DNA of 57,912 nucleotides. Origin: a bacterium. Its GTDB lineage: Bacteria; Patescibacteriota; Minisyncoccia; UBA6257; 02-FULL-45-10c. Numbering within the stretch: the stretch's first letter is position 1; every line of letters begins with the position of its first letter. Below, one piece after another: positions 1,132 to 41,802 of this stretch. Position numbers and translations under genes: made by a program. The notes beneath the pieces were generated by a model. It was given only the letters and a program-made list of their open reading frames with translations, was not told where the DNA came from and searched no databases. Location: assembly GCA_030700025.1 (NCBI GenBank), contig JAUYKI010000008.1, positions 1 to 57,912 of the forward strand, written 5' to 3'.

Positions 1132-1653
1132 TTAATTAATTTCGAGGATGCGGTATTCTTGCTCGCCCTTGGGAGTTTTGATTTTGATTATTTCGCCTTC
1201 TTCATGATTCATTAAGGCCGAGCCGAGCGGGGATTGGTAGGAGATCCGCCCTTTTTCCGGACTGGTTTCCTGCGAACCGACGATTTCAAAAGTTTTTTGA
1301 ACTTGTGGTGAGCTTGCCAAACCATTTAATTCCAGCAAAACTACCGAACCGATTTGGATTGTTCCCGAAGCATTCCGGCCGGATTTAATTACTACCGCGC
1401 GTTTTAATTGGTCTTCTAAACTAAAAATCTGCCGGTGCGTCCGGCGAAGAATATGCTTGGCTTCCTTATATTCGGCATTGTCCGAGCGGTCGCCATAAGC
1501 GGCGGTCCTGGCGGCTTCGGCTATATAGTCGGGAAGCGCCTTCTTAAGCTTTGCCAGCCGTTCCTGGAGGCGTTTAAGCCCCTCCGGCGTCAAATGAACC
1601 GGCCCGGTATCCCGAACCTTAAATTTTTCAGAGCTATGCTGTGGGATTTGCAT
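1132..1653 (-). CDS. greA: Transcription elongation factor GreA (ATG at 1653 preferred over TTG at 1659)
   Basis: LTPEGLKRLQERLAKLK...AAYGDRSDNAEYKEAK coiled-coil N-domain plus GreA C-terminal domain (ISYQSPLGSALM..GE.I). Confidence 0.85.
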   Translation of the reverse strand: MQIPQHSSEKFKVRDTGPVHLTPEGLKRLQERLAKLKKALPDYIAEAARTAAYGDRSDNAEYKEAKHILRRTHRQIFSLEDQLKRAVVIKSGRNASGTIQIGSVVLLELNGLASSPQVQKTFEIVGSQETSPEKGRISYQSPLGSALMNHEEGEIIKIKTPKGEQEYRILEIN

Positions 1654-1660
1654 GAGCAAA

Positions 1661-1891
1661 CTATCTTATACTAACCTTTCTAACTCCAAACTGATTAAAT
1701 CGCTCAACAATGCCTTTAACTAACTCTCTTTTTAACCTTGAATGTCTTGGAATTGTAGTAACAAATTGGCCATTTATATCTTCAATTTTAAAATGCTTCT
1801 TTCCTGATTTGACAACAAGACCGCACTTTTTGGCGGTCCTGATAAGCTCTTCAGACGAACAGTCAGAAGCGTTAATTCCCAACCCCCTCAT
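1661..1891 (-). CDS. hicA: HicA-like (YcfA family) toxin
   Basis: 76 aa. LIRTAKKCGLVVKSGKKHFKI....TTIPRHSRLKRELVKGI matches the HicA pattern. It overlaps the upstream HicB-like ORF by 20 nt. Confidence 0.55.
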   Translation of the reverse strand: MRGLGINASDCSSEELIRTAKKCGLVVKSGKKHFKIEDINGQFVTTIPRHSRLKRELVKGIVERFNQFGVRKVSIR

Positions 1892-2339
1892 AAGATGAAA
1901 TTTTCATTTCTACCTCTCTGCTTCTCTTTGGGGCCGGAAAAGCATCTAATTGATGAGCAACGCTAACCGGTGGAAGATATGTGGGCATATATTGAAAAAA
2001 TTTTTGGGGCACATTGAGATATGTTTTTACGCAGTCATTAACCATTTCTACTAATTCAGATAATGTATCGCCTTGAGTCAAACAGCCCGGAAAAGAAAGT
2101 ATTTGAGCTACAAAGCCCCCATCTTCGGAACGGCTAATTTTTACGCTTATTCGCGCAGAAAACTTACTTCTTAAGTCCTTAATTTTTTCTTTATCTATTT
2201 TAGTAATCTTTTTATCCATATATTTATAATATCGTTTCAGCCCCTCCGGCGTCAAATACACTGGCCCGGTATCCCGAACCTTAAATTTTTCAGAGCTTGT
2301 AGTGAGCTTGCCGAACCTACTATGCTGTGGGATTTGCAT
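1872..2339 (-). CDS. hicB: HicB-like antitoxin. The ORF is N-terminally fused to a duplicated copy of the first ~27 greA codons (an internal start at 2219 is possible)
   Basis: ISVKISRSEDGGFVAQILSFPGCLTQGDTLSELVEMVNDCVKTYL is the HicB/UPF0150 signature. N-terminus MQIPQHS..SEKFKVRDTGPVYLTPEGLKR duplicates the GreA N-terminus. Confidence 0.65.
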   Translation of the reverse strand: MQIPQHSRFGKLTTSSEKFKVRDTGPVYLTPEGLKRYYKYMDKKITKIDKEKIKDLRSKFSARISVKISRSEDGGFVAQILSFPGCLTQGDTLSELVEMVNDCVKTYLNVPQKFFQYMPTYLPPVSVAHQLDAFPAPKRSREVEMKISSYEGVGN

Positions 2340-3286: not shown

Positions 3287-3320
3287 GCCGCGTTCAATAA
3301 CGCGGCTTTTTATTTTTTTT
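3287..3320 (+). terminator. Rho-independent terminator
   Basis: GCCGCGTT-CAAT-AACGCGGC hairpin followed by a T-run. Confidence 0.7.
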
Positions 3321-3368
3321 TCTATACTAATTTTTCAGAGCTGTGTTAAAAGATTTGCAGAGTTTAAA

Positions 3369-3992
3369 CTAATTAATAAAAGCGCTTTCGTAAAGCGGGG
3401 TTTTATCATCTTTAAATCTAAAAATATATTCGGTACTATAAAACTTTTGAGTAAATAATTTAGTAGCAATAGTATATTTTATTAAAAATTTACATTCTAT
3501 AGAATTAAAATTTTGAGGGATTGGAAAAACAAAAACCATTTCTTCGCCATTGCCAATGATTATTTTTCCTGCTTCTGGGAGCGCCTGACTGTCCTTAGGA
3601 CAAAATATTGAGTCATTTATCACCTGGGCTGGTAAGATTCCGACATTTTTAATACGAAGCATAAAATCAGTAGCCGACGGATGAATGCTCTTAATTACTA
3701 AGTATGGCCTATTGCGCAACTCAAATTCTGTATTTGCTCTATTATTTTGTAAGTAGGAAAAATATATTGTTGGTAGGATAATAATTAATGGGATAATTAT
3801 TCCAATAGTTTGAATTATAAAACTTTTTCTACTCTCTAGTATATTTTTTCTGTCTTGTCTTTGTTGAGTAGAATTAGTAATTATAACATCATCTTTATTA
3901 TTGTATAGGGTTTCTAATTCCCTCTGAATCTTAAAAAGATTCCAATCTTCACCAAATAATTTTTTAAAACATTCTTTTATTCTATTTATCAT
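3369..3992 (-). CDS. Hypothetical membrane protein
   Basis: Long ORF with one clear TM helix (IIQTIGIIIPLIIILPTIYF). No recognisable motif. AT-rich. Confidence 0.5.
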   Translation of the reverse strand: MINRIKECFKKLFGEDWNLFKIQRELETLYNNKDDVIITNSTQQRQDRKNILESRKSFIIQTIGIIIPLIIILPTIYFSYLQNNRANTEFELRNRPYLVIKSIHPSATDFMLRIKNVGILPAQVINDSIFCPKDSQALPEAGKIIIGNGEEMVFVFPIPQNFNSIECKFLIKYTIATKLFTQKFYSTEYIFRFKDDKTPLYESAFIN

Positions 3993-4148
3993 TAAAGTGA
4001 TTATTAAATATAATAATACAAATTACCCATATTTTACCCCAAAACCCCTCCCGCCGCAAGCGGGAAATAAATTGTTTGATTTTAGATTCAAAAGGAAGCA
4101 TAATTTATATATTCAACTTAGAGAAGCTCCATTTTAAGGCGGTATTGT

Positions 4149-4918
4149 ATGAAATTAAATCTTAACGAACAACTTGTAACTCATTACAAAAGCGCATCGC
4201 AAAAGGCGCGCATTTTAACAGAACAATGGGTTGATAATTCAATTTTTTGTCCGAATTGCGGACGATTGAATATAGACAAGTATCCAAATAATCAACCCGT
4301 TGCCGATTTTTACTGTTCGAATTGCAAAGAAGAATACGAGTTGAAAAGTAAGCAAAACACAATCGGTACAAAAATTGTAGACGGTGCGTATCGCACGATG
4401 CTTGAACGGCTGACAAGTAGTAATAACCCGAATTTTTTTCTGCTAAATTACGACTTATCAAATCTCGAAGTGATAAATTTTCTTGTTATTCCGAAACACT
4501 TTTTTGTACCAGAAATAATCGAAAAACGGAAGCCACTTTCGCCGACGGCTCAGCGTGCCGGTTGGGTTGGTTGTAATATCCTTCTACAAAGTATTCCGCA
4601 AACCGGTAAAATCTTTTTCATAAAAAATAAACGGATTGAGCCTAAAGAAAAAGTGCTTGCTGAATGGCAAAAAACACTTTTTTGCGAGAGGAGAAAGAAA
4701 TTTCTGCTAAGAGTTGGTTACTTGATACAATGCGAAGCATCGAAAAACTTGGAAAGCGTGAATTTATGCTTGAAGATATTTATGCCTTTGAAAAAGAATT
4801 GGGCAAACTTCACCCGGACAACAAGCACATTAAAGATAAAATCCGCCAGCAATTACAATTTTTACGCGATAAGGGCTATCTTGATTTCGTATCGCGTGGA
4901 TATTATCGGCTTATATAA
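4149..4918 (+). pseudogene. DpnI-like methyl-directed type IIM restriction endonuclease, split by a frameshift in a T6 tract (4678..4683)
   Basis: N-terminal part is frame 4149... (YKSASQKARILTEQWV..FCPNCG...PVADFYCSNCKEEYELKSK..GAYRTMLERL..NNPNFFLL...RKPLSPTAQRAGWVGCNI). The C-terminal winged-helix part continues in the -1 frame (ORF 4664..4918: FLREEKEISAKSW...HIKDKIRQQLQFLRDKGYL). Confidence 0.8.
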
Positions 4919-4924
4919 GAGAAT

Positions 4925-5104
4925 ATGACGAATCGAGATTTACAAACACAATACGACAAAATTTATTCTTATTTTAAAACTACTTACGAGCATTTTAGTG
5001 ATTTAGAATGGAACGGAAAAATTTTATTTGTTTGGAAAGACGAAAATATTACAGAAAAATATTCACTAAAAGATTTAACAGGATTAATTTTTAATGAGAC
5101 ATAA
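4925..5104 (+). CDS. Small hypothetical protein (59 aa, below the ORF-track cutoff)
   Basis: ATG 4925 to TAA 5104, immediately after the DpnI-like gene. No motif. Confidence 0.3.
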   Translation: MTNRDLQTQYDKIYSYFKTTYEHFSDLEWNGKILFVWKDENITEKYSLKDLTGLIFNET

Positions 5105-5176
5105 TAAATTAAGAAAATATAAAATTATAGAAAAATAAAAAAACCTCCTTTGGAAATTTTATGTTAAACTAAATTT

Positions 5177-5602
5177 ATGCCAGGGGTATCAAATCAAAAA
5201 ACTGAAGCGGCGCTTCGTGATAGTCTTGAAAAAAAAGGGGGGTTTAAATTAAGTCGGCAGTTAAAAAATGGCGAAACGGGTCCCGATATTATAGCCATAG
5301 AGAATAACAGCAAAGAATTCTACATAGAAGTTATCGGTTATAAAAAATCGCCACCAGCACGATCGCGAGATTTTTATACTGTATTTTTTGGAGCTATTTC
5401 TAGAATAAAAGATGGCGCCAAGCATTGTGTTATTGCCTTACCTGATTTATTTGAAATTGGTTTGCCGGCTCGCGTTCGTCAATATGGTAGATTGGCTTGG
5501 CAAAGAATTGGTCAAGCATTTCCGGAATTAGAAATTTGGCTCGTGGACGTTGATAAGAAAGAATATAAGAAAACTAAATGGAATGATTGGCTTAAAAATT
5601 GA
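5177..5602 (+). CDS. Hypothetical protein, possibly with a PD-(D/E)XK nuclease-like fold
   Basis: GPDIIAIE....YIEVIGYKK resembles a degenerate PD..ExK motif. No other signature. Confidence 0.45.
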   Translation: MPGVSNQKTEAALRDSLEKKGGFKLSRQLKNGETGPDIIAIENNSKEFYIEVIGYKKSPPARSRDFYTVFFGAISRIKDGAKHCVIALPDLFEIGLPARVRQYGRLAWQRIGQAFPELEIWLVDVDKKEYKKTKWNDWLKN

Positions 5603-5621
5603 GAAGCGGTAAAGTAAATTT

Positions 5622-6263
5622 ATGAAAAATCAGAATTTTAAAAAGTGGGGGAGATTAATCAAAAAAGTATTGAATGATTGTTGGGAATTTCGAAGCTTAT
5701 GCGAAAAACCTTTTGATAGAGGATTTATAGGAGAATTATTGGTTTTAAAACGATTATTGGAAAAATATAAGGCCCAACTTGGTTCTACTCGTGGCGAGTT
5801 TTTTTATGCCGGTAGTTCTAACGCGGAATGGGACATTAAGCTTAGATTTAATGGCAAATCTATACTATTTGATGCAAAAGCAACTACAACGCCAGCGTCG
5901 AAGTCAGATAGTAGACCCAAATGGGTTCGACAGAAAGCGAGGAATTTTTGTAATATTAAGATCGGTAAAGATGGAAAACAACACGTATCTCTATTTTCAA
6001 AAAATAATTTTAATCCGAATCTATTTTATGTTTTTGTTGATGTCATAGTATGGTTAGAAAACCGCCATGCTAATTATTATATTCTTTCAGATAAAGAGGC
6101 AAAATCAATATTTGGTAAAAAGTATAAAAAGGATCATGATGGAAAAATAAGAAGAAATGATACTGCGGATTTTCATGTTGAATACAATGATGTCAAGAAT
6201 TTTAAAGACAGGTATCCTAAGTTTCAAGCGACAAAGCTTCGCCATAAAAAAATAGGAGAATAA
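5622..6263 (+). CDS. Hypothetical protein, possibly with a PD-(D/E)XK nuclease-like fold
   Basis: GELLV...EWDIKL...LFDAKAT fits the E..D..(D/E)xK spacing of restriction-endonuclease-like folds. Confidence 0.45.
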   Translation: MKNQNFKKWGRLIKKVLNDCWEFRSLCEKPFDRGFIGELLVLKRLLEKYKAQLGSTRGEFFYAGSSNAEWDIKLRFNGKSILFDAKATTTPASKSDSRPKWVRQKARNFCNIKIGKDGKQHVSLFSKNNFNPNLFYVFVDVIVWLENRHANYYILSDKEAKSIFGKKYKKDHDGKIRRNDTADFHVEYNDVKNFKDRYPKFQATKLRHKKIGE

Positions 6264-6267
6264 ATTT

Positions 6268-6456
6268 ATGCCTAAACCATTATTTGACGATACAAATGAA
6301 GCGGGTGATAAAGAAAAAGATAAGCCGGAGGAAGAAGTTAAAGAGCTAATGGAAAATCATGATTTAGATCAGGATGGGGCAGAAAAAGTAAAAGAGCTGA
6401 TGGACGAAACCGGCCTCGACGAAGACGAGGCGGTAGAATCAAAAGAGGTTTTATAA
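6268..6456 (+). CDS. Small highly acidic protein
   Basis: 62 aa, D/E-rich with internal repeat ELME.HDLDQDGAE / ELMDETGLDEDEA. Starts tightly after the preceding gene. Confidence 0.45.
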   Translation: MPKPLFDDTNEAGDKEKDKPEEEVKELMENHDLDQDGAEKVKELMDETGLDEDEAVESKEVL

Positions 6457-6473
6457 ATAAAAAATATGTAAAT

Positions 6474-6507
6474 AACATTCCAACATTCTGCAGAATGTTG
6501 GAATGTT
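6474..6507. repeat. Palindrome family copy (type A)
   Basis: AACATTCCAACATTCTGCAGAATGTTGGAATGTT, a perfect 34-bp palindrome. Confidence 0.9.
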
Positions 6508-6562
6508 GTGAATACGCCAGACGGGTGGCGTATTCAGCCTTAACGGAAAAATTAAGCAAAAA

Positions 6563-6592
6563 AACGGTAAGGCATGCTTTACCGTTTTTTTT
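6563..6592. terminator. Bidirectional rho-independent terminator
   Basis: A-run, CGGTAA-GGCATGCT-TTACCG, T-run. Confidence 0.6.
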
Positions 6593-6765
6593 GATATATC
6601 CGGCGGGGCTCCCGTTCCCGCAACGCCGTCAAGCGGCCGTAGACTGGGGAGATTAACTACATCAGATATTACTATTCAAAGCGATTTCAAGGAGGTTTTA
6701 GGACGCGAAGACGTTACTAAAAAAGTAGCAAAGCCTCAAGAATTTGTCAAAATACTTAGAAACAT

Positions 6766-6799
6766 AACATTCTAACATTCTGCAGAATGTTAGAATGTT
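6766..6799. repeat. Palindrome family copy (type A variant) overlapping the stop codon of ArsR-1
   Basis: AACATTCTAACATTCTGCAGAATGTTAGAATGTT, a perfect 34-bp palindrome. Confidence 0.9.
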
Positions 6800-7059
6800 T
6801 GCATAAACTTTAAAAATGATTTTCCGTAAGGCGAGAGCGAATGGGTAACCTGGCGGCCTTGATACTTTTTGTTTAAAAGACCGGCGTTAACTAAAGAGCG
6901 GGTATGCTGGGATATAGTTTTAAAATTACCGTTAAGCTCATTAGCAATCCCTTCAACTGTAATGCCATCTCTTTGATTTACGGTGTATATAATAGCTATG
7001 CGCCAATGATTGGCAGCTCCCTTAAAATAACGCTCTAATTGCTTTGGTGTTTTTCCCAT
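6790..7059 (-). CDS. ArsR/SmtB-family winged-helix transcriptional regulator (paralog 1)
   Basis: FKGAANHWRIAII....ITVEGIANELNGNFKTISQHTRSLVNAGLLNKKYQGRQVTHSL matches the ArsR HTH pattern. Contains no Cys. Confidence 0.8.
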   Translation of the reverse strand: MGKTPKQLERYFKGAANHWRIAIIYTVNQRDGITVEGIANELNGNFKTISQHTRSLVNAGLLNKKYQGRQVTHSLSPYGKSFLKFMQTF

Positions 7060-7084
7060 CGCTTAACTATAACAAATTTCCATG

Positions 7085-7120
7085 CAACATTCCAACATTC
7101 TGCAGAATGTTGGAATGTTG
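7085..7120. repeat. Palindrome family copy (type A), 26 nt upstream of the ArsR-1 start and just downstream of the ABC-F stop
   Basis: CAACATTCCAACATTCTGCAGAATGTTGGAATGTTG, a perfect 36-bp palindrome. Confidence 0.9.
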
Positions 7121-7142
7121 TGACAAGATAAAAAATCAGTTC

Positions 7143-8612
7143 TTAAAGCTCCTCCAAATCTAAAATTTTATCAATTCGGATTTGTTTAATAAATTCCGGG
7201 ACGTGGCTGACTAAAATCATTCCGCCCGCGTATTTGTCCAAAGCCGCGGCAATTATCGGAATATGCCGGAAGTTAATATGGTTAGTCGGTTCGTCCAGAA
7301 TCAGCAATCCCGGCTTTTGAAGCGCCAGCCGCGCGAATGCCACCAATCCCTTCTGGCCTTCGGATAAATTCCCGATTTTTGCCCGCAAGATATGCTCGTC
7401 AATTAAAAACCCCGAGGCAATGGAGCGGAGCCGTTCCTGGGTCATGTCCCACTCCATAAGATCGCTGCCTGCCGATGCCAGCGACTCATACACGGTGTCT
7501 TCAAAGTTCAGAGTAGAGAAGTCCTGGCGGTAATAGCCGACCCGGATGCCCTTAGTAATGTGTTCGCCTTTAGCGTGGCCGGTTGCCAATTTTTCCAAAA
7601 GAGTAGTTTTGCCGATTCCGTTCGGACCGGTTAAAAGCAGATGTTCGTTTTTCTTTAAAATAACATTTACTTTTTTAACTGTTGGTTTGTGGTTTTTTAT
7701 CACGGAAACCGCGGTTAATTCCAAAAGCTGTCCGCTGATGTCCTCCTGGCAGGGGATAACAAACTTTCGGATGGTTTTATCTTCCTGGCGGACGTCCACC
7801 ATTTCTTCTTCCAATTCCTCAATTTTTTCCCGCATTTTCCTTGCCACGTCCCGCATGTGCCCGCCTTTTTGCCCGAAAAATCCTGCCTGCACCTTGCGGT
7901 GCGCGATATCGCTTTCCAGCCGGGCATTTTTTCTCCGTTCATTTTCCAGCCGGACTTTTATCTGCTCCACCACGTCAAAATAGTTTCCGACGTATTGTTC
8001 CACTTTCCGGGTAAAAATATCCAGATACAAAACGCCCTGGGTAAACGCGTTAAGGAAATCGGCATCATGGGAAATAACCACGCAGGTTTTTTTATAGTCT
8101 ATTAAAAATTTAGTCAGATGGGCGATGCCGGATTTGTCCAAGTTATTAGTTGGCTCATCCAGCAGAAGCAAATCCGGGTCCTGAATCAGCGCCGACGCCA
8201 AAAGAAGCCGCGCCTGCTGTCCGCCGGAAAAAGATTTAATTATCCGGTCATGCGGGGCTTTTAAGTTGACCACCTCCAAAACATCGTCAATCCGCGGGTC
8301 AATATCGTAAACCTTTTGAGAGAAGCATTTCTCAAAAAACTTTTGGATAGTCAGTTCCATCTGATCTCTGGGAATTACCTGTCTGGCGGTGGCAACGGTC
8401 AAGCCGTCCTCCAGGCTGATCTTCCCGGAATCCGGCTTCAACGCTCCGGTAATCAGCTGGAACATCGTGCTTTTACCGGCGCCGTTCTGCCCCATGAGAG
8501 TAACTTTCGCCCCCCGGCGGATGGAAAAATCCGCCTCTTTTAAAATTGGCTTATTATGCCCGAATTCAAAATTAACATTATTGAACCTTACGATTACTTC
8601 TTCTTTAGCCAT
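7143..8612 (-). CDS. ABC-F family ATPase (two ABC domains, no TM domain)
   Basis: Walker A GQNGAGKST and GPNGIGKTT. Signatures FSGGQQARL and LSEGQKGLV. Walker B LLLLDEPTN and LLILDEPTN. Basic interdomain linker. Confidence 0.9.
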   Translation of the reverse strand: MAKEEVIVRFNNVNFEFGHNKPILKEADFSIRRGAKVTLMGQNGAGKSTMFQLITGALKPDSGKISLEDGLTVATARQVIPRDQMELTIQKFFEKCFSQKVYDIDPRIDDVLEVVNLKAPHDRIIKSFSGGQQARLLLASALIQDPDLLLLDEPTNNLDKSGIAHLTKFLIDYKKTCVVISHDADFLNAFTQGVLYLDIFTRKVEQYVGNYFDVVEQIKVRLENERRKNARLESDIAHRKVQAGFFGQKGGHMRDVARKMREKIEELEEEMVDVRQEDKTIRKFVIPCQEDISGQLLELTAVSVIKNHKPTVKKVNVILKKNEHLLLTGPNGIGKTTLLEKLATGHAKGEHITKGIRVGYYRQDFSTLNFEDTVYESLASAGSDLMEWDMTQERLRSIASGFLIDEHILRAKIGNLSEGQKGLVAFARLALQKPGLLILDEPTNHINFRHIPIIAAALDKYAGGMILVSHVPEFIKQIRIDKILDLEEL

Positions 8613-8665
8613 AACAATAAAACTTTACTTTACTTTACTTTATTACAACACAAATCCCACAATAT

Positions 8666-8699
8666 AACATTCCGACATTCTCAAGAATGTTGGAATGTT
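8666..8699. repeat. Palindrome family copy (type B, imperfect) overlapping the stop codon of ArsR-2
   Basis: AACATTCCGACATTCTCAAGAATGTTGGAATGTT. Confidence 0.85.
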
Positions 8700-8956
8700 C
8701 TTATAAACTTTATAAACGTTTCTCCGTAGGGCGAAAGGGTATGTCCCACGTTGCGGCCCTGATATTTTTTATTGAGAAGTCCCGCTTGAACTAGCCGTCT
8801 CGTATGCTCAGAAACGGTTTTGAAATTTTTATCCAAATTTTCAGAAATCATTTCCAGGGTAATGTCGGGCCTTTGAGAAACTAAAAGCAAAATCTCAATA
8901 CGGGAGTGATTAGCCGCGCCCTTGAAATGCCTTTCTAATTGCTTCGCCGTTTTCAT
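8681..8956 (-). CDS. ArsR/SmtB-family winged-helix transcriptional regulator (paralog 2)
   Basis: Collinear with 6790..7059, with a large fraction of identical residues by eye (QLER.FKGAANH.RI....NFKT.S.HTR.LV.AGLLNKKYQGR.V.H.LSPYG). Confidence 0.8.
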   Translation of the reverse strand: MKTAKQLERHFKGAANHSRIEILLLVSQRPDITLEMISENLDKNFKTVSEHTRRLVQAGLLNKKYQGRNVGHTLSPYGETFIKFIRTFQHS

Positions 8957-8972
8957 GTCTGTTTATCCTACC

Positions 8973-9010
8973 ACAACATTCCGACATTCTCAAGAATGTT
9001 GGAATGTTGT
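8973..9010. repeat. Palindrome family copy (type B), about 17 nt upstream of the ArsR-2 start and downstream of the 1041-aa gene
   Basis: ACAACATTCCGACATTCTCAAGAATGTTGGAATGTTGT. Confidence 0.85.
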
Positions 9011-9048: not shown

Positions 9049-12000
9049 TTAATCGGAACCCAGCATTCTTTTTTCCAGGCTGGAGATCAGCGAAACGCGT
9101 TCACGATTCAATCGCGAGTAATCGGAGATATGGTTTAAGCAATTCCGCAGAAGCTGGGGGTGATGGTTCAGCAGTTTCTGGAAATCATTTTTGCCGATAA
9201 ATAAGGCAACGGTTTCTTTATGGGCTTTTACGGTGCAAATCGCCCCAGTGTTTAAAATAACGGACCGTTCGCCAAAAAGCCCGAATTCTAATGGTTTGTC
9301 AGATAATTCAATCGGCTCAGTCTCGGAATCGGGTTTGGCCTGGCTTAGGATAACGGAGCCGCGGATTAGGATATAAACGCCCGCGGTTTTTTTGCCTTGC
9401 CGGATCAAACAATCGCCGGCGCTGAATTTCTTTTCCGAAGCTTTGTCGGCTAAAAATATCCGTATATCTTCGGGGTTAATTCCGTTAAATATCTCCAATC
9501 CAAAAACATTATTACCAACGCTGTTTTTTCTTTGAATCAAAACATTAGCGAGAAGCCTCCGGAGCTTTGGATAGGCGGTTTTCAACTTTCCTAAATCCTT
9601 TCTTTGGATTTCCAACAGGCGGCAGGAAGTTTCCGCTATCACTGTGGCAGTCCGCTTCCGATTTTTTTTCTCAAATACAATCGCTTCGCCGATGATAGCG
9701 CCCCGGTTGCTGATTTTCGCGATTTCCACTCCGCCTACCAAAACCCGGCAGGTTCCCTGGACTAAAATAAATAAAGAATTGGCTGGGTCTCCCTCGGAAA
9801 CGATAACCCCGCCCTTTGGGCGATCCACGGCTTTAAGATGCTGGGCTAAAATCCGCTGTTCACGGCGGTTGGATTTTAGATAATCAACCAGAGGAATATT
9901 TTTAAAATCCAAATTTTCACCAATCGGATAATCGGGCAGTTCGCACAGTTTTTCAATTTCCGCGCCCAGCATTTCCGGATTTATTCTGCCGGACCGGTAT
10001 TCTTCCACCCAGTATTTTAATTTTTCATTCAGTTCATAGAGGCTCGGAAAATTTCGATTGATGATTTTTAATTGGTCATTCCAATAAGAACGCCGCGGGA
10101 GGCACTTTTCCGAATCCAGGGCATCCAGCATTTTAAAAAGCGCGCGGATAAAGTTTTTCGTTTCGGATAAGAAGCCTCTCAATTCCTTATGCGTAACCAC
10201 GGCTTTTTCTTTTATAAAAATTTCCCCTTGGTTAACCTCTCCTTGGCTGATTAGCTGGGGTTCATAAACAATGCCCGGCTTCACCTGTGCCAAAGCGGTT
10301 TTTCTAATCAAGTAATTTAAAGCCCGCTCTTCTCTTTTGGACGAAAGGTTATAAAGCCCGGCCAGATGCCGGAATAAGTTAGACATGTCCAACAAGGCCG
10401 GATCTTGACCATCTGGAACAGGATTATATAAATTCAAGCTCGTTTTTTGAGGGCTGATTTTTTTGGCTAATTTTTCAAATTGGTCAGACAGCGCCAGGAC
10501 TTGTTTTGAGTGCTTAGAGAAAAAAATAGGGGAGCGGGCATCGTCTACGCCAAGCAGGGACAAAAGATAATTCCCTAAATATCGGCGCCTTTGCGCGGAA
10601 AATTGTTTTTCCACATCCGGGTTTTTTATTCCTTTTACTTTTGCCAGTTGCCGCAAAATTTTGATAAAGCCCGCTCCCTCGTAGCCAAAAAGGTTTTCAG
10701 AATACTTGCCGGAAGCGGAATGGTACGGACCCCGGTATTTCGTGAAAGAAACAGTTTCCGGGTCAATCAAATGGCCGGTCAGTGAATAATTTCCGACTGA
10801 CCATGCTCCCATTAATATCCGATAGGCAAAATATTGCGCGTCTAATTTGGCGTATTCGTCCAGAACTTTTGGAAAATCAACCGCAATGGACGGGGAATAT
10901 TCAATGTGGCTGGGCCGGTCCAGCGCGCCATCGTCAATCCGCACTAGCAACGCCGAAGGAATCGGATTGGCGCTCCATTTATATTGTTCGGTTTCTTTAA
11001 GCGCGATAACTACGGGGTGATGGACGGCATTTTTAGTAAAGTGATTCATCCACCTGGAAAGCACTACCCGCCGGAATGATCCCACTAATTCCATTTTTCC
11101 GGTGCTGTGGCTGGGAATCAGGCTAACACAAAGAGTTGTTTTACCGACGCCCATGACATTAAAATTCTTTCCGTAATAAACCGCTCTTCCGGAACCGAGA
11201 TTCCCGCTTAATCCAATGCCCGTAGAATCTTTTTGCCGGTCCGCGTAAACCGTGATTGGTTTGGAAGCCGGATTTTTATAGTTGAGCGCTATCGCGAAAT
11301 TCCGGACTTGTTCCGCCAAATCGCCTTCGTAGCCGCGATTTTTAAAATACGCCTGATCCGTATAAACTATTTCGTAATCTTTCGGATCCAGCCGCCGCGC
11401 CGTTTGCGGAACAAAAATAGATTTGCCCAATCTTTGCATAGCCAAGGGCATTTCCGCTAAATCGCTGGCCAAGTCAATGTAAGGTTTCCGAGCAATAATC
11501 CACCAAGCCGGATCGCCCTGCCGGCCGAAAGATTTATCCCAATATTGCTGTTTCAGGTAATTTTCGTAATAATCCCGCATTAATTCTATAACAATGAATC
11601 CGCTGTTTTGGCGTTTGGTTAATTGTTTTAAGGCTAATTTTTGGCTCGGGTATTGGCTGATGATAAACAAGTCGGGTTTTAATTTTTGGACAAAATCTTT
11701 CCAAAGGACGATCGTGGCCAAAACTCCGTGAATATAATCCCGGTTGCTTACGGAATCATAAAGTTTTTTAATGCTGGGCGGAACTTCCCATCCCGCTTCT
11801 CTTTCTTTGGAAAATAAAGAGGGCTCTTTTCCGCGCATGGCAAACGCTACCGCCATATCGTCAAACGGATGATTAGACAGCAGGGCATCCACCCGCGAAG
11901 GAATATCCTGGCCGATTTGCACGTCCTGTAAAAATTTTCTGACTAATTTTACGGAGGCTCGCGGCAAGATTTGTTTATATAATTTTTCCACGTGCGCGGC

Positions 12001-12174
12001 GGCGGAACTGTCCGGCTCGATTAGAATAACGGTCCCGGTAAATCCAATGAGGGCCAGCGCGTCGCCAATTTTTTTCTCGTAACCGGGCGCCACCTCCACT
12101 ACTACGCCATTAACGGGAATTGGGTTTTCTTGAAGCAATCTTTGCCAAATGTAGGAAACGAGCTTAATGTCCAT
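9049..12174 (-). CDS. 1041-aa multidomain protein: N-terminal Rossmann/SAM-MTase-like region, central SelO/YdiU-like (protein-kinase-like fold) region, and two C-terminal cyclic-nucleotide-binding domains
   Basis: N-terminus has VVVEVAPGYEKKIG...VILIEPD...LLSNHPFDD. The middle has LGSGRAVYYG..NVMGVGKT...STGKMELVGSFRRVVLSRWMN...ALLVRIDDGALDRPSHIEY...GAWSVGNYSLTGHLIDPETVSF, collinear with SelO motifs. The C-terminus has two CAP_ED-like units (GDPANSLFILVQGTCRV...GAIIGE and GKKTAGVYILIRGSVIL...FGLFGE). Confidence 0.6.
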   Translation of the reverse strand: MDIKLVSYIWQRLLQENPIPVNGVVVEVAPGYEKKIGDALALIGFTGTVILIEPDSSAAAHVEKLYKQILPRASVKLVRKFLQDVQIGQDIPSRVDALLSNHPFDDMAVAFAMRGKEPSLFSKEREAGWEVPPSIKKLYDSVSNRDYIHGVLATIVLWKDFVQKLKPDLFIISQYPSQKLALKQLTKRQNSGFIVIELMRDYYENYLKQQYWDKSFGRQGDPAWWIIARKPYIDLASDLAEMPLAMQRLGKSIFVPQTARRLDPKDYEIVYTDQAYFKNRGYEGDLAEQVRNFAIALNYKNPASKPITVYADRQKDSTGIGLSGNLGSGRAVYYGKNFNVMGVGKTTLCVSLIPSHSTGKMELVGSFRRVVLSRWMNHFTKNAVHHPVVIALKETEQYKWSANPIPSALLVRIDDGALDRPSHIEYSPSIAVDFPKVLDEYAKLDAQYFAYRILMGAWSVGNYSLTGHLIDPETVSFTKYRGPYHSASGKYSENLFGYEGAGFIKILRQLAKVKGIKNPDVEKQFSAQRRRYLGNYLLSLLGVDDARSPIFFSKHSKQVLALSDQFEKLAKKISPQKTSLNLYNPVPDGQDPALLDMSNLFRHLAGLYNLSSKREERALNYLIRKTALAQVKPGIVYEPQLISQGEVNQGEIFIKEKAVVTHKELRGFLSETKNFIRALFKMLDALDSEKCLPRRSYWNDQLKIINRNFPSLYELNEKLKYWVEEYRSGRINPEMLGAEIEKLCELPDYPIGENLDFKNIPLVDYLKSNRREQRILAQHLKAVDRPKGGVIVSEGDPANSLFILVQGTCRVLVGGVEIAKISNRGAIIGEAIVFEKKNRKRTATVIAETSCRLLEIQRKDLGKLKTAYPKLRRLLANVLIQRKNSVGNNVFGLEIFNGINPEDIRIFLADKASEKKFSAGDCLIRQGKKTAGVYILIRGSVILSQAKPDSETEPIELSDKPLEFGLFGERSVILNTGAICTVKAHKETVALFIGKNDFQKLLNHHPQLLRNCLNHISDYSRLNRERVSLISSLEKRMLGSD

Positions 12175-12357: not shown

Positions 12358-12606
12358 ATGAAGTACTTTGTTTATATTTTACAAAGCTTAAAAGATGATG
12401 GGTTTTACGTAGGAATGACCACTAACCTTGAAAAACGATTAAATTATCACAATAAGAGGTTGGTAAAATCGACAAAGCATAGAGTTCCCTTTAAACTTAT
12501 TTATAATGAAAGCTTTGGTGATCGAAAAACAGCTAGAGACAGGGAGAAATATTTAAAGAGCTATAAAGGATCCAGAGAAAAGTTAACAATCCTGGAAAAT
12601 TTATAA
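12358..12606 (+). CDS. GIY-YIG nuclease family protein (small, YhbQ/UPF0213-like)
   Basis: YFVYILQS..DGFYVGMTTNLEKRLNYHN....ST..R.PFKLIY.ESF....A..REKYLK. Confidence 0.85.
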   Translation: MKYFVYILQSLKDDGFYVGMTTNLEKRLNYHNKRLVKSTKHRVPFKLIYNESFGDRKTARDREKYLKSYKGSREKLTILENL

Positions 12607-18229: not shown

Positions 18230-18475
18230 ATGTTATATTACGTTTACATCTTAAAATGCGCAGATAAATCCTTATACGCCGGTTGCACTAATAATTTAGA
18301 AAAACGATTACAAGAGCACAATAAATCAAAACGCGGCGCGCACTATACAAAAATCCGCCGGCCGGTAAAATTAGTGTATTCGGAATCGTTCCGGACCCTT
18401 GGCAAGGCCCGGAAACGCGAAGCCGAGATTAAAAACTGGAACCGGAAGGAAAAATTAGCTTTAATTAAAAAATGA
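18230..18475 (+). CDS. GIY-YIG nuclease family protein (second small paralog)
   Basis: YYVYILKC.DKSLYAGCTNNLEKRLQEHN....GAHYT...RPVKLVYSESF....A.KREAEIK. Confidence 0.85.
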   Translation: MLYYVYILKCADKSLYAGCTNNLEKRLQEHNKSKRGAHYTKIRRPVKLVYSESFRTLGKARKREAEIKNWNRKEKLALIKK

Positions 18476-38004: not shown

Positions 38005-39475
38005 GGCCGGCTAATTCACTGCTTAAAACCGAGTCGCGGACGGCAAATTTTCCATTAACCAGCACATCCGTAATCGCTCCGTCCTTAAATAAAACCAAGT
38101 CGGCAAAATAGCCGTCTTTCAGCAGGCCCCGGTTTTTAATGCCGTAAAATTGGGCGGCGGAAGCGGTTATTCTTTTAATCGCCTGCTCCAACGGAATGCC
38201 GCGTTTCGCGGAAAATTCCAAAAACTTCTTAAACGTTAAGGTGGAGCGTTCCAGCTTTAATCCCCTGCCCTTCTCCGGCAAGCTGGCGCCGTTAGAGCCA
38301 ATTAAAGAACGCGGGTGAACCAGAATATTTTCCAATAAATTCATATCCAAATTTTTATGAGCCAGCATGCCCCGCAATCCGGTAGAGTCCATCAAATCCA
38401 GCAGAGCCTCCAGCGGCTTTTGCTCCCGGTCATTGGCAATCTGATCAATAGTTTTTCCGAGAACATAATCCTGGTTCCGGGCTTCCGCCACAATAAAATC
38501 TTTTAAATCCAGCTTGGATAATTCTTTAATAATTTGCTTCCGGGTGGTCTCGCCTTCCAAATTAGCCAGCACAACCTCCAACGGGCCGTTTTTCGCCCAA
38601 TCCGGCAAAAGCGAATAGATCGGCACCAGGCTTTCGTCAAAAGGATTAACGTCAAAATAAACATTCGCGGTGCCGGAACTTTTTTCTACCAAGCTGACCG
38701 ATTCCTCAAATTCTTTTTCAAATCCCCTGACCGGCCGGAAGTGGCTAAGAATCGCGCGGGCGCCGGTTTCCTGGGAAACTAAAATGGTTTCTTCCACCGA
38801 TTTTACCAATCCTGCTTTTTCATCTCTTGGATGCGTGGCATAAATTCTATTATATTTAGCAACCAGTTTCACCAATTCTCGTATTTCGGCGTATGGGACA
38901 TTTTTCGCGTGAATGTAGCTCAATCCGGTGGACAAGCCAACGGCGCCTTCTTTTAAAGACCGCTCCAGGACTTTTTTAAAAACATCTGTTTCCGATTTGG
39001 TCATATCTCGGACGCCTTCGCCTACGATATCCCGCCGAATAGTGGCGTGGCCAGTTAAAGTTCCAAAATTGACTCCTAATTTCAGCTTTTGAAAAATACC
39101 GAATAATTCCGCCAGCGTATTCCAGCCGACATTCACCTGAAAAGGATCAGCCCACTTCCTGATGGAAACCAGCGAGCCATAAATCAGCGGCGCGATAGAA
39201 GAACCGCACTGGCCCCCGATAATCGTCGTTACTCCTTGAAGCAAAAAATCCTTTTGGGAAGGATTAGTGAATAAGCTTAAATAATGGTCCGAGTCCGTGT
39301 CCACATCCACAAAGCCGGGAGTGGCTGTCAATCCCAGTCCGTCTATTACCACATCGGCTTTTTTATTCGGAAAAATGCCGATCGCGGAAATTTTATCGCC
39401 GTTTATAAAAATATCCGCCCTGAACGGCTGGCTGCCGCTGCCATCAACTATTTGGACATTTTTTATCAAAATCAT
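37985..39475 (-). CDS. Amidohydrolase superfamily protein (N-acyl-D-amino-acid deacylase-like) with a degenerate metal motif
   Basis: I.N..IVDG.G......DI.I.GDKI..IG......IDG.G....PGFVDVDTDSDH. The usual HxH reads DxD. Confidence 0.55.
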   Translation of the reverse strand: MILIKNVQIVDGSGSQPFRADIFINGDKISAIGIFPNKKADVVIDGLGLTATPGFVDVDTDSDHYLSLFTNPSQKDFLLQGVTTIIGGQCGSSIAPLIYGSLVSIRKWADPFQVNVGWNTLAELFGIFQKLKLGVNFGTLTGHATIRRDIVGEGVRDMTKSETDVFKKVLERSLKEGAVGLSTGLSYIHAKNVPYAEIRELVKLVAKYNRIYATHPRDEKAGLVKSVEETILVSQETGARAILSHFRPVRGFEKEFEESVSLVEKSSGTANVYFDVNPFDESLVPIYSLLPDWAKNGPLEVVLANLEGETTRKQIIKELSKLDLKDFIVAEARNQDYVLGKTIDQIANDREQKPLEALLDLMDSTGLRGMLAHKNLDMNLLENILVHPRSLIGSNGASLPEKGRGLKLERSTLTFKKFLEFSAKRGIPLEQAIKRITASAAQFYGIKNRGLLKDGYFADLVLFKDGAITDVLVNGKFAVRDSVLSSELAGHVIQVF

Positions 39476-41802
39476 CTTTGCAAACCGTACTTATTCCGGG
39501 AAAGGTCTTTTAATTGCTCCCGCCACTCGGCGCTCCCCCGCGGAGACGGCAGGGTGTGGATATTAAACGGCTTGGAAGTTTGGCCGGAGATTAAAAGCTT
39601 CGCGTAAGCGTTAAAATTATCAATATTGATCAAATCATTTTTGGTAAAGATCGGCTCAAATTGCTTAATCAATTCCTCGGCGTCTTTGGCGCCAATCCGG
39701 AAAGTGACAATGGACCCGACGTTGCCGAAAACCGCGTCCCTAATTTTATCCGACAATTGGGCGATAAACTGGTGCGCCACGACTAAATTCAAACGGTATT
39801 TCCGGGCCTCCGATAAAATAGTGGCGATGGAATCCGTGGAAAAATTCTGGAACTCGTCAATAAAAAGATTGAAATCGCGGCGCTGTTCTTGCGCGATATC
39901 CACGCGGGAAAGCGCGGACATCAAAAGTTTTCCGACAATAATCATACCCAGCAATCCGGCGTTAATATCGCCGATCCGGCCCTTGGACAAATTAACCAAT
40001 AAAATTTTTCCGCTATCCATTGCTTCCCGGAAACGCAAAGCTGACTTCGGCTGGCTGATAATCGGCCGGACATAATCGTTGGCAATAAAATTATTAAACT
40101 TAGAAGTAATATAGGGCGTAATATTCTGCAGGGACGCTTCTCCGCCCACCATCACCGCTTCCCGCTCCCAGAAGTCTTTTATCACCGGATTTTGGCAGCG
40201 CGCCAATTTAGCCTTCCGAAAATCCTCATCCGTAAAAATTCTCGGCACATCCGCCAGGGTCGCCGGCTCATTCGGCGCGTCTTCCATCAAAAGCAGAAGC
40301 GCGCTCCGCATATATTGCTCAAACATCGGGCCCATAGTTTCCGGCGGGAAAAGCTTGTTAAAAATTCCCTGCATTTCATTCACAATAAAAGTTTTTTCTT
40401 CCGGCCGGTTAAAATCATATTCCAGCATGTTTAATCCCAGCGGATGCAATAAATCTCCCGGGTCAAAAACAATCACATCATCAACGCGTTCTTTCGGCAC
40501 TAATCCCAAAATAGAATCTATCAAATCGCCGTGCGGATCAATCACCGCCACGCCCTTGCCCTGATAAATATCGTGGATGGCCATATTCACGATTAAATTA
40601 GACTTTCCGGTTCCGGTCTGTCCGATGACATAAATATGGCGGCGGCGGTCTTCGTCGGTAATTAAAACCGGCCGGCGTTCGCCCCGGAATATGCTTTCTC
40701 CAATTAAGACTCCTTCCTTGGGCAAAATAACCGGCGGCTCAGCCTCCTTGGATTTTACCCATTTAATTTTAGGCACTTCAGTTTGAGAAGTTGGAAAATG
40801 GAATAAACTGACTATTTCATCGCTTCCTAAAATCATTTTTTGCGCTTCGTCAAACTGCCGGAAAATAAATTTAAAAATCAATTCTTTTTCGTTTCTGGGC
40901 TTGATAATATCAATATCGTTCCGGAACGGAGCGGTAAACTGCTCGTCGTAAGTGCCCGCTAAACTGGTTAAAAGTTCGCTGGTCCGAACTTCGTTCGGAG
41001 TAGAAGCCACAATCCGGACATTAACGGCAAAAATAGGCTTGGCTAATTTTTTTTCAATTGCCTTAATCGCTTCTTCTTCCAGAACCGGTTTGGAAGATTT
41101 ATCCTGCTCGGTTCCTTCCAGCGCCCGCTGAACATCTTTAAAAGATATTCCCGCTTTGGAAGCCTTTAAAACCGCGTCCAGCCTTTCGCCTTTTTTCAGC
41201 TGAACCAAAAAATTACTGGCTCTTTTTTTAAACTCTTTATCCGCGGGCTTTACTAAAATTTGAATCGCCGCGCCCTCGCCTACCGCCTCCATCTTAGAAA
41301 GATTGCTAAGGGCCGGCAAAAAAGTGTCCGAGCCCGCTTCTTCATAAGTCCGCAACGGAACCACTGAATTAAAGTTTTGCGTCAAATAAACGCCGGAGCT
41401 GACGCCCTGGCTGTTAAAAATATTATAGTCATCGCTTTCTTCCACTTGGGCGTCGTGCCAAAGGCCCTGGATGTGCCGGGACACGGACTGCAAAGAATCT
41501 CCCGGAACCGCCACAAAAAATTGGATTTCTTCGCCGACATACTGCACCGCGACTTCCAATCCGAATGGAATTTTTAAATTAGCCAAAATTCCCAAAAGCT
41601 GGCTGGATAAATTTATTTCTTTCTGCCAGGCGTCCCGGTCGCCGCCCTCTTTCTCCAACTTTTGCGGCAATCGGACCAGCAGTGTCCGGAGCTTAAGCGC
41701 GTCCCTAAAATACCGCCGATGGACATGCCGGGAAATAAAAAAAGCAATCGCGCCCGCCAATATGATGAATATAAAAAATCCTAAAAATAACAGCGCGCTC
41801 AT
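39472..41802 (-). CDS. Membrane-anchored P-loop NTPase of the FtsK/HerA-TraD/VirD4 (T4CP-like) type
   Basis: N-terminal TM helix. Walker A GQTGTGKSNL with IDPHGDL, and Walker B FNLFIDEFQNF. Confidence 0.6.
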   Translation of the reverse strand: MSALLFLGFFIFIILAGAIAFFISRHVHRRYFRDALKLRTLLVRLPQKLEKEGGDRDAWQKEINLSSQLLGILANLKIPFGLEVAVQYVGEEIQFFVAVPGDSLQSVSRHIQGLWHDAQVEESDDYNIFNSQGVSSGVYLTQNFNSVVPLRTYEEAGSDTFLPALSNLSKMEAVGEGAAIQILVKPADKEFKKRASNFLVQLKKGERLDAVLKASKAGISFKDVQRALEGTEQDKSSKPVLEEEAIKAIEKKLAKPIFAVNVRIVASTPNEVRTSELLTSLAGTYDEQFTAPFRNDIDIIKPRNEKELIFKFIFRQFDEAQKMILGSDEIVSLFHFPTSQTEVPKIKWVKSKEAEPPVILPKEGVLIGESIFRGERRPVLITDEDRRRHIYVIGQTGTGKSNLIVNMAIHDIYQGKGVAVIDPHGDLIDSILGLVPKERVDDVIVFDPGDLLHPLGLNMLEYDFNRPEEKTFIVNEMQGIFNKLFPPETMGPMFEQYMRSALLLLMEDAPNEPATLADVPRIFTDEDFRKAKLARCQNPVIKDFWEREAVMVGGEASLQNITPYITSKFNNFIANDYVRPIISQPKSALRFREAMDSGKILLVNLSKGRIGDINAGLLGMIIVGKLLMSALSRVDIAQEQRRDFNLFIDEFQNFSTDSIATILSEARKYRLNLVVAHQFIAQLSDKIRDAVFGNVGSIVTFRIGAKDAEELIKQFEPIFTKNDLINIDNFNAYAKLLISGQTSKPFNIHTLPSPRGSAEWREQLKDLSRNKYGLQR

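Follow-up and report, generated by a model that had tools for sequence, protein, structure and literature searches.

In the 57,912-nt contig JAUYKI010000008.1 of a patescibacterial genome assembly (GCA_030700025.1), two genes for small ArsR-type regulators, each enclosed by a pair of palindromes, stand on either side of a gene for an ABC-F family ATPase. Does this locus form a dedicated circuit in which both regulators act on the ABC-F factor, as a reading of the letters without database searches (the sequence-only reading) had proposed, or do regulators and palindromes belong together irrespective of the gene between them? Analysis of the whole contig, referred to below as the window, and of loci in other genomes points to the second answer. 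As judged from sequence, the unit of biology is a palindrome–winged helix-turn-helix (wHTH) gene–palindrome module, accompanied by solitary sites that appear to have spread by insertion, and not an ABC-F regulon. A literature search for the palindrome sequence, and for palindromes of the Candidate Phyla Radiation (CPR) or Parcubacteria, found no prior description.

Two palindrome-flanked regulator genes and the ABC-F gene between them

The window holds seven palindrome copies: five at 6474–9008, one at 1088 and a degenerate one in ychF (48164). Their 34-bp consensus is AACATTC-YN-ACATTCT-NN-AGAATGT-NR-GAATGTT, in which each arm consists of two tandem 8-mers, AACATTC(C/T) (A/G)ACATTCT. Half-sites match the window 18 times against 1.93 ± 1.54 expected from shuffles, and a relaxed palindrome scan of shuffled loci gave zero matches. 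On the minus strand the cluster reads palindrome 8975, arsR-2, palindrome 8666, ABC-F, palindrome 7086, arsR-1, palindrome 6766, a spacer and palindrome 6474. The sequence-only reading had described four palindromes of two variants, with arms built of tandem 8-mers, that bracket two regulator genes, each gene starting near one palindrome and stopping inside the next. This architecture is borne out in every respect but the count, which the copy at 6474 raises to five.

The copies around arsR-1 have a CTGCAG centre and are perfect palindromes. The upstream one (7086–7119), a putative arsR-1 operator, lies 23 nt past the ABC-F stop and 26 nt before the arsR-1 ATG; the downstream one (6766–6799) contains the last codons of the gene (..MQTF, of which the palindrome encodes (Q)TF) and its TAA stop. 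These two copies differ at positions 8 and 27 (TA..TA in 6766, CA..TG in 7086), a difference that accounts for the TAA stop. arsR-2 is enclosed by a variant whose centre is CTCAAG on the plus strand (CTTGAG on the gene strand) and which has one A/C arm mismatch. Its upstream copy (8975–9008), a putative arsR-2 operator, lies 40 nt past the stop of a gene for a 1041-aa cyclic nucleotide monophosphate (cNMP)-binding protein and 18 nt before the arsR-2 ATG, and its downstream copy (8666–8699) encodes the C-terminus ..TFQHS, supplies the TGA stop from its CTTGAG centre and lies 53 nt before the ABC-F ATG. The fifth copy (6474–6507) is perfect and CTGCAG-centred, of the CA..TG variant, and begins 17 nt past the stop of the plus-strand open reading frame (ORF) 6268–6456; as RNA it would form a hairpin of −23.7 kcal/mol without a U tract.

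arsR-1 (6790–7059, minus strand, 89 aa) and arsR-2 (8681–8956, minus strand, 91 aa) encode proteins of 66% mutual identity that fall into two recognition-helix subfamilies, SQHT and SEHT, respectively. Pfam HTH_5 matches the two regulators just above its cut-off of 22 bits (23.0 and 28.4), NCBIfam NF033788 stays below its cut-off of 55 bits (39 and 32.6), and the nearest PDB sequence match is CadC with E 0.004. An AlphaFold2 model (predicted local distance difference test score, 89.7) has the ArsR/SmtB topology α1-α2-α3-αR-β1-β2-α5, and its top Foldseek matches are CadC, SmtB, CzrA, NolR and HlyU with template-modelling (TM) scores of up to 0.85, the value for CadC. The model and the HTH_5 matches support the earlier assignment of both regulators as ArsR/SmtB-type winged-helix proteins. 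A classical thiolate metal sensor had been considered unlikely, and this view gains weight: cysteine is absent from both translations, inspection for metal or thiol ligands (α3 CXC, α3N and α5) found the α5 helix PYGKSFLKFMQTF to be without a His, Asp or Glu cluster, and the invariant His residues occupy DNA-binding or structural positions. Homologues of the regulators form more than 1300 clusters, the named ones belonging to Parcubacteria-group lineages. arsR-1 is 75–86% identical to homologues in other genomes across classes, and arsR-2 reaches 74% with homologues of its own type; arsR-1 is thus closer to foreign homologues than to arsR-2, which indicates two old subfamilies rather than a recent duplication.

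Both regulator genes are preceded by promoter-like sites that include palindrome sequence. For arsR-1 (7066–7095, minus strand) these comprise a −35 box TTGGAA within the palindrome arm, an 18-nt spacer and a TG-extended −10 box TATAGT that ends 6 nt before the ATG, so that the message would be near-leaderless; for arsR-2 (8965–8993, minus strand) the −35 box TTGAGA comes from the palindrome centre and is followed by a 17-nt spacer and a TG-extended −10 box TAGGAT ending 8 nt before the ATG. A −10 box before the regulator ATG recurs across lineages. It is correctly spaced on 11 of the 16 palindrome sides that face an ArsR gene start, as compared with 14/66 sides facing the start of another gene and 50/149 control sides facing a gene end. 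The upstream copy of the unit therefore resembles an autoregulatory operator and the solitary copies do not; by its geometry, it looks like an operator placed on a near-leaderless promoter. The earlier suggestion that the palindromes are operators thus stands for the copy upstream of the regulator, but not as a regulon of operators. Such a regulon was considered and rejected, as only ArsR recurs strongly in a Pfam scan of neighbouring genes and the −10 spacing is negative for non-ArsR genes.

The gene between the two units (7143–8612, minus strand, 489 aa) encodes two ABC domains with a linker. It matches ABC_tran in two stretches and ABC_tran_Xtn weakly, and its top NCBIfam match, ribo_prot_ABC_F, reaches 313 bits, below the cut-off of 380; two nucleotide-binding domains joined by a linker, without a membrane domain, place it in the ABC-F family. 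Its position between the units is incidental, and it is not a conserved partner of either. In 80 metagenome loci with ABC-F orthologues of 64–78% identity (576 kb), one palindrome, with 2 mismatches, and one ArsR homologue were found, and the arrangement is therefore specific to the window genome. No −10 box at promoter spacing lies between palindrome 8666 and the ABC-F gene. There is no canonical terminator between arsR-2 and ABC-F, the first one following arsR-1 (6558–6591), so transcription from the arsR-2 promoter may continue into ABC-F in the window genome, a linkage that is not conserved.

Units and solitary palindromes across genomes

An exact-pattern scan of one genome per species (GTDB) returned at least 119 palindrome loci. 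Among the matches listed, the hosts are mostly Patescibacteria (Saccharibacteria, Paceibacteria-type groups and Doudnabacteria), with a few metagenome-assembled genomes (MAGs) labelled Kiritimatiellia, Verrucomicrobiota, Omnitrophota or Gammaproteobacteria, and host GC content runs from 27 to 60%. A 28-base core is identical across this range of hosts, and the conserved site extends to 38 bp (A-N-(34)-N-T). Carriage by phages was considered and rejected, with zero matches in 2.9 million viral contigs.

A homologue of the ArsR-type regulators is the only strongly recurrent neighbour of the palindrome, being present in about 31–33 of the 119 loci listed, with no other family in more than 12; roughly 70% of the loci listed have no ArsR gene within 8 kb. 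Seen from the regulator, the association is much tighter. Nearly all homologues are bracketed by one copy that ends 16–47 nt before the true ATG and a second that overlaps the stop (−10, −19 or −2) or sits just past it. Homologues picked by protein search alone were bracketed in six of six cases (upstream gap 25–41, stop overlap −10), with neighbours that all differ: glycosyltransferase, BipA, DnaJ with TyrRS, PIF1 with DUF559, and SdpI with DUF2196. The expectation that related genomes would tie palindromes to ArsR genes thus holds in one direction: regulator genes come with palindromes almost without exception, but the majority of palindromes are dispersed and lie apart from any regulator gene. 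The GC content of the ArsR ORF tracks that of the host (r 0.90, 28–53%) while the palindrome core is fixed, which implies long residence and purifying selection on both protein and site.

Pairing of regulator type and palindrome centre, which had been put forward from the window as co-divergence of site and regulator, recurs in other genomes. Regulators of the SQHT type have GC- or AT-centred flanking palindromes in 10/11 loci, and those of the SEHT type have CA, TG, TA or CG centres in 13/16. Copies at the same locus share their centre class in 72 of 89 pairs, compared with 45.5 expected (permutation p < 0.0002). Five loci have mixed centres, among them the window, which carries both regulator types, and arrays of the form gene–palindrome–gene–palindrome were found in the window and at loci L077, L036, L200 and L202.

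Some other genes recur around the units. TspO genes lie within a few genes of an ArsR unit in five of the seven loci that contain TspO (L003, L059, L077, L097 and L098), TspO twice carries the palindrome inside the same loop, and MsrB and SdpI-domain membrane proteins are also found near ArsR units. These neighbours may point to a partner in the membrane, of the kind known from SdpR/SdpI. PIF1-like helicases, often with HTH_40, and a DUF559/MTES_1575 nuclease-like protein recur beside ArsR units (L200, L202, L014, L039, L044 and others), and genes for GIY-YIG mini-proteins and TraG/VirD4-like proteins are frequent in palindrome loci, with copies in the window at 12358–12606, 18230–18475 and 39472–41802. 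All four were considered as mobilizing enzymes and rejected, as they recur in palindrome loci but are too seldom adjacent.

Solitary copies favour gene ends. Intergenic ones lie between convergent genes 22 times and between divergent genes 8 times (p 0.016; background 120 vs 116), and tandem intergenic copies without an ArsR neighbour are nearer the upstream stop in 35 cases and nearer the downstream start in 10 (p 2.5e-4), the median distance from the stop being 16 nt. The solitary copy at 1088–1121 in the window (one mismatch, CTGCAG centre) lies 10 nt past the greA stop and 56 nt before a gene for an FKBP-type peptidyl-prolyl isomerase. No T run follows the palindromes on their 3′ side; the flanks show N-T-(T) alone, and the stem has a GC content of about 29%. 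A Pfam scan of 68 start-adjacent and 91 stop-adjacent genes found ArsR alone to be strongly recurrent among mostly heterogeneous neighbours, with NUDIX, TspO, YchF and ABC ATPases recurring a few times.

Fourteen copies lie inside real housekeeping ORFs, 11 of them in a single frame that reads (K/Q)HSNILxNVGML. The hosts include PGK, MurC, MurD, MnmA (twice, at different positions), TsaD, a Gnd-like dehydrogenase, TspO, YgjP and the YchF of the window, where the degenerate copy (48164–48197, in ychF at 47731–48750 on the minus strand) is read in the usual frame as KHSNILKNVRM. In the PGK of a Brennerbacteria MAG the palindrome accounts for 15 cleanly inserted residues, PQHSNILQNVGMLWR, that none of the nine closest orthologues (63–76% identical) has, and one MnmA is 13 aa longer at its copy. 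TspO is longer by 7 aa, and YchF exceeds its nearest orthologue by 5 aa; these two copies look like an insertion that was later trimmed, or a replacement. Such in-gene copies argue against strong termination at these sites.

Changes within the palindrome tend to preserve its symmetry. Positions 8 and 27 complement each other in 120 of 132 exact copies and positions 9 and 26 in 111, and core changes comprise 27 symmetric double changes that keep Watson–Crick pairing, the single ones being 41 mismatches and 13 G-T changes; 54 of the 110 changed core positions thereby lie in pairing-preserving symmetric changes. Copies within one genome carry different symmetric changes, which therefore cannot be explained by co-evolution with the protein. 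Template-switch correction of quasi-palindromes is one mechanism that yields symmetric changes. Single changes of the G-U and A-C kinds show no sense-strand bias (31 vs 24, p 0.42) and so lend no support to a structure specific to mRNA.

In the source groundwater metagenomes the palindrome word reaches about 150–500 times the depth of flanking sequence, with many different flanks, and Logan contigs are interrupted wherever a palindrome occurs, so that they show no more than the great abundance of the repeat in this community. None of the sequencing runs that contain the window sequence is an RNA run. Per genome the copies are probably few and uneven, with 7 in the 58-kb window and 1 in 576 kb of unselected CPR DNA, the rarity of the palindrome in this sample of ABC-F orthologue loci being the reason for expecting a low number.

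Weighing the explanations

The account that we think somewhat likelier to be right than wrong is that of an autoregulated wHTH protein with cognate binding sites spread by insertion, resembling both REPIN–RAYT systems and Rickettsia palindromic elements (RPEs). The locus would then contain the same conserved, self-contained module twice, each about 320 bp long (palindrome, ArsR/SmtB-fold wHTH gene, palindrome), and the protein of this module would be the cognate sequence-specific binder of the palindrome. The four 8-bp half-sites of the 34-bp site (38 bp with conserved flanks) suggest that two dimers bind. Binding at the upstream copy, which overlaps the −35 box and spacer, would turn off the protein's own transcription and constitute negative autoregulation, and the downstream copy, which overlaps the stop and closes the unit, might be a second operator, might shield the unit from transcription of its neighbours or might mark the other boundary of a recombining cassette. 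Solitary copies would be the same binding site, carried by insertion or recombination into places that tolerate it, namely just 3′ of stops, between convergent genes and in one reading frame within coding regions. They would not be promoter operators; a protein-bound roadblock or hairpin, a neutral passenger and a chromosomal landmark are candidate roles. The window would carry one unit of each old subfamily, each with its own centre, by chance on either side of ABC-F.

In architecture the closest analogue is REPIN–RAYT, the transposase being replaced by a winged-helix protein without catalytic function; in insertion behaviour it is the RPEs. RAYT genes are flanked by cognate REP/REPIN palindromes (Bertels & Rainey; PMC3116915, PMC3337134, bioRxiv 10.1101/2021.07.10.451892). 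The likeness extends to a single-copy protein gene flanked by its own cognate palindromes, to further copies that are dispersed, extragenic and mostly at 3′ ends, to co-variation of protein and repeat types and to an inheritance that seems mainly vertical over the long term. In contrast, the unit described here encodes an 88–91-aa non-catalytic winged-helix protein where RAYT is an HUH/Y1 (IS200-like) transposase, apparently has few copies per genome where REPINs number tens to hundreds, keeps its core fixed across classes and phyla where REPINs are species-specific, and uses a perfect palindrome without a spacer. RPEs are palindromes of 100–150 bp, abundant in one genus and without a dedicated binding-protein gene, that lie between genes and in frame inside conserved coding genes of a reduced genome (PMC1779305). 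The element analysed here is 34–38 bp long, and its PGK copy is likewise an in-frame repeat in a conserved ORF that close orthologues lack. Cysteine-free ArsR/SmtB autorepressors of the SdpR, NolR, PagR and HlyU type share the fold (TM 0.75–0.85), the small size, the lack of a thiolate metal site and, as predicted from sequence, an inverted repeat over their own promoter. The present proteins differ from them in a 34-bp palindrome of four half-sites with a second copy over the stop codon, in dispersed and gene-inserted sites in place of a conserved target operon, and in NCBIfam scores below family cut-offs. In pdif modules and integron cassettes, too, a single gene stands between two short palindromic sites, and arrays occur in some cases, but no Xer or IntI association was found here, the site architecture differs and solitary in-gene copies occur.

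Several observations weigh against a protein whose sites spread by insertion. We infer recognition of the site by the protein, and autoregulation, from association and geometry alone. The statistic for the link between regulator subfamily and centre (Fisher p 3.4e-4) takes no account of shared ancestry, and the centre of the SEHT type is partly fixed by the TGA stop and, in one orientation, by the TTGAGA −35 box. The copies in ychF, TspO and one MnmA are not clean insertions, their lengths differing by 0–7 aa. A single palindrome in 576 kb of unselected CPR DNA corresponds to a low apparent copy number, which is more in keeping with a few functional sites than with a repeat that proliferates. 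The symmetric changes suggest that the palindrome forms hairpins or cruciforms, or that template-switch correction acts on it, and are more than protein binding alone would explain. No transposase or integrase recurs near the copies, the Y1 transposase family is absent from the recurrent palindrome neighbours, and the 88-aa wHTH protein has no catalytic motif.

The dedicated circuit of the sequence-only reading, in which two co-diverged operator/repressor pairs place ABC-F under dual ArsR control, seems to us very unlikely, even though the gene order and single shared strand are as described, the pairing of protein type and centre is real and the missing terminator after arsR-2 would permit read-through. 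This claim did not survive comparison: the 80 orthologue loci yield one palindrome and one ArsR gene, the ArsR unit stands beside different genes in every genome examined, no promoter-spaced −10 box separates palindrome 8666 from ABC-F, and the flanking genes of the 119 listed loci share little function beyond a minor recurrence of NUDIX, TspO and YchF. The tight placement of copies past stops and between convergent genes, stable RNA hairpins of −17 to −24 kcal/mol and the 27 pairing-preserving double changes would all suit palindromes whose chief role is to fold into nucleic-acid hairpins at message 3′ ends (terminator, attenuator, stabilizer or REP-like), with ArsR not needed. However, the copies lack a U tract in a genome that uses a canonical terminator at 6558–6591, sense-strand bias of G-U over A-C is absent, a hairpin of no particular sequence would not retain the same 28 bases in hosts of such different GC content, and strong termination within PGK, MurC, MurD and TsaD would truncate essential transcripts. 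We regard this explanation as unlikely.

Site-specific recombination sites in the style of loxP, dif, pdif or attC, with the ArsR gene among the cassettes moved by some recombinase, are a decidedly unlikely alternative. The 34-bp arm–centre–arm layout, the gene–palindrome arrays, the changing context of the unit and the centre usually shared by the copies flanking one ArsR gene, like an attL/attR core, are what such a system would produce, but no integrase or recombinase recurs near the copies, just two central bases vary, the attC hallmarks (imperfect pairing, extrahelical bases, 57–141 bp) are absent and solitary insertions into naive coding sequence are unlike conservative site-specific recombination. 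Highly improbable, in our assessment, is a non-transcriptional, chromosome-level landmark system like ParB/parS, MatP/matS, Noc/NBS or Tus/RTP-Ter. Low copy number, conservation of the site across lineages, a placement indifferent to gene function that includes gene interiors, and local clustering (7 copies in the window) agree with it, as does one site at the protein's own gene with putative autoregulation; in tus-TerB, rtp and spo0J-parS, a site likewise lies at the gene of the protein, with autoregulation. Against this, the window gives a weak GC-skew signal, a replication fork trap requires a polarity that perfect palindromes are unable to provide, and no partner ATPase or other gene is associated.

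Two further-reaching alternatives can be put forward, tentatively and at a joint probability well short of even. The module could be a new long-lived, genome-inherited element, REPIN–RAYT-like in being single-copy, vertically inherited and flanked by its own repeats but unlike it in that a non-catalytic DNA-binding protein would recruit host replication or repair to copy a 34–38-bp hairpin; or it could be a Patescibacteria-wide landmark of the parS/Ter type. Either would be undescribed CPR biology.

Neighbouring features and significance

Beyond arsR-1, a 258-nt spacer without an ORF (6508–6765, minus strand) contains a short hairpin (6510–6535) and the canonical bidirectional intrinsic terminator at 6558–6591, and is likely the end of an arsR-2/ABC-F/arsR-1 transcription unit. 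Its palindrome-to-palindrome spacing is as in the units, and a third, decayed ArsR cassette was considered here; this was rejected when tblastn found no significant ArsR remnant. An Rfam scan of the window at gathering threshold returned tRNA only, and an E-value scan of 6440–6830 nothing credible. The hairpin, AATACGCCA-(GACGGG/CGCGGG)-TGGCGTATT, follows directly on palindrome 6474, is nearly identical in a Giovannonibacteria locus (L080, 6562–6583) and resembles one that follows the palindrome in another contig of the source metagenome (position 1125); it may be another small repeat family. Between the terminator and the arsR-1 stop palindrome, about 170 nt (6592–6765, minus strand) are without an ORF or Rfam match and partly GC-rich, and could be a 3′ untranslated region or a small RNA, the folding z-score of 6500–6770 being −2.4. 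A short tandem repeat, CTTTA/TAAAG in about four units (8624–8645), occupies part of the 53 nt that separate palindrome 8666 from the ATG of ABC-F.

Further afield in the window (1132–2339, minus strand), a HicB-like ORF (1872–2339) that lies upstream of a HicA-like ORF (1661–1891) opens with a repeat of the ~35 N-terminal residues of GreA (MQIPQHS..EKFKVRDTGPVHLTPEGLKR). A HicAB cassette seems to have entered greA at its 5′ end, with that end becoming duplicated; in one metagenome contig, the greA/HicAB region has a joint that “goes back 330”. A low-GC island (about 36%, 3300–6460) contains a gene for a DpnI-family restriction enzyme (4149–4928), of which a 77%-identical copy lies near an ArsR unit at locus L104, and ORFs 3369–3992, 5177–5602 and 5622–6263 without a family match; this island, which borders the palindrome cluster, probably serves defence. 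On the other side of the cluster, the 1041-aa protein (9049–12174, minus strand) combines two C-terminal cyclic-nucleotide-binding domains with a long N-terminal region without a family match, and its PADLOC matches, which are Pycsar-effector-like, cover the cNMP domains alone.

CPR/Patescibacteria make up a large and mostly uncultured part of bacterial diversity, whose gene regulation and genome dynamics are barely known. The analysis corrects a tempting but wrong reading of this locus, ArsR control of an ABC-F factor, and directs attention to a protein–DNA pair in which a 28-base core stays constant across classes, a gene is nested between two sites and the site is inserted in essential genes. 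The unit is easy to detect and therefore usable as a marker, and two natural variants of protein and site in one genome can be compared in vitro. The module may reveal a new route by which short palindromes spread, or a conserved chromosomal function.

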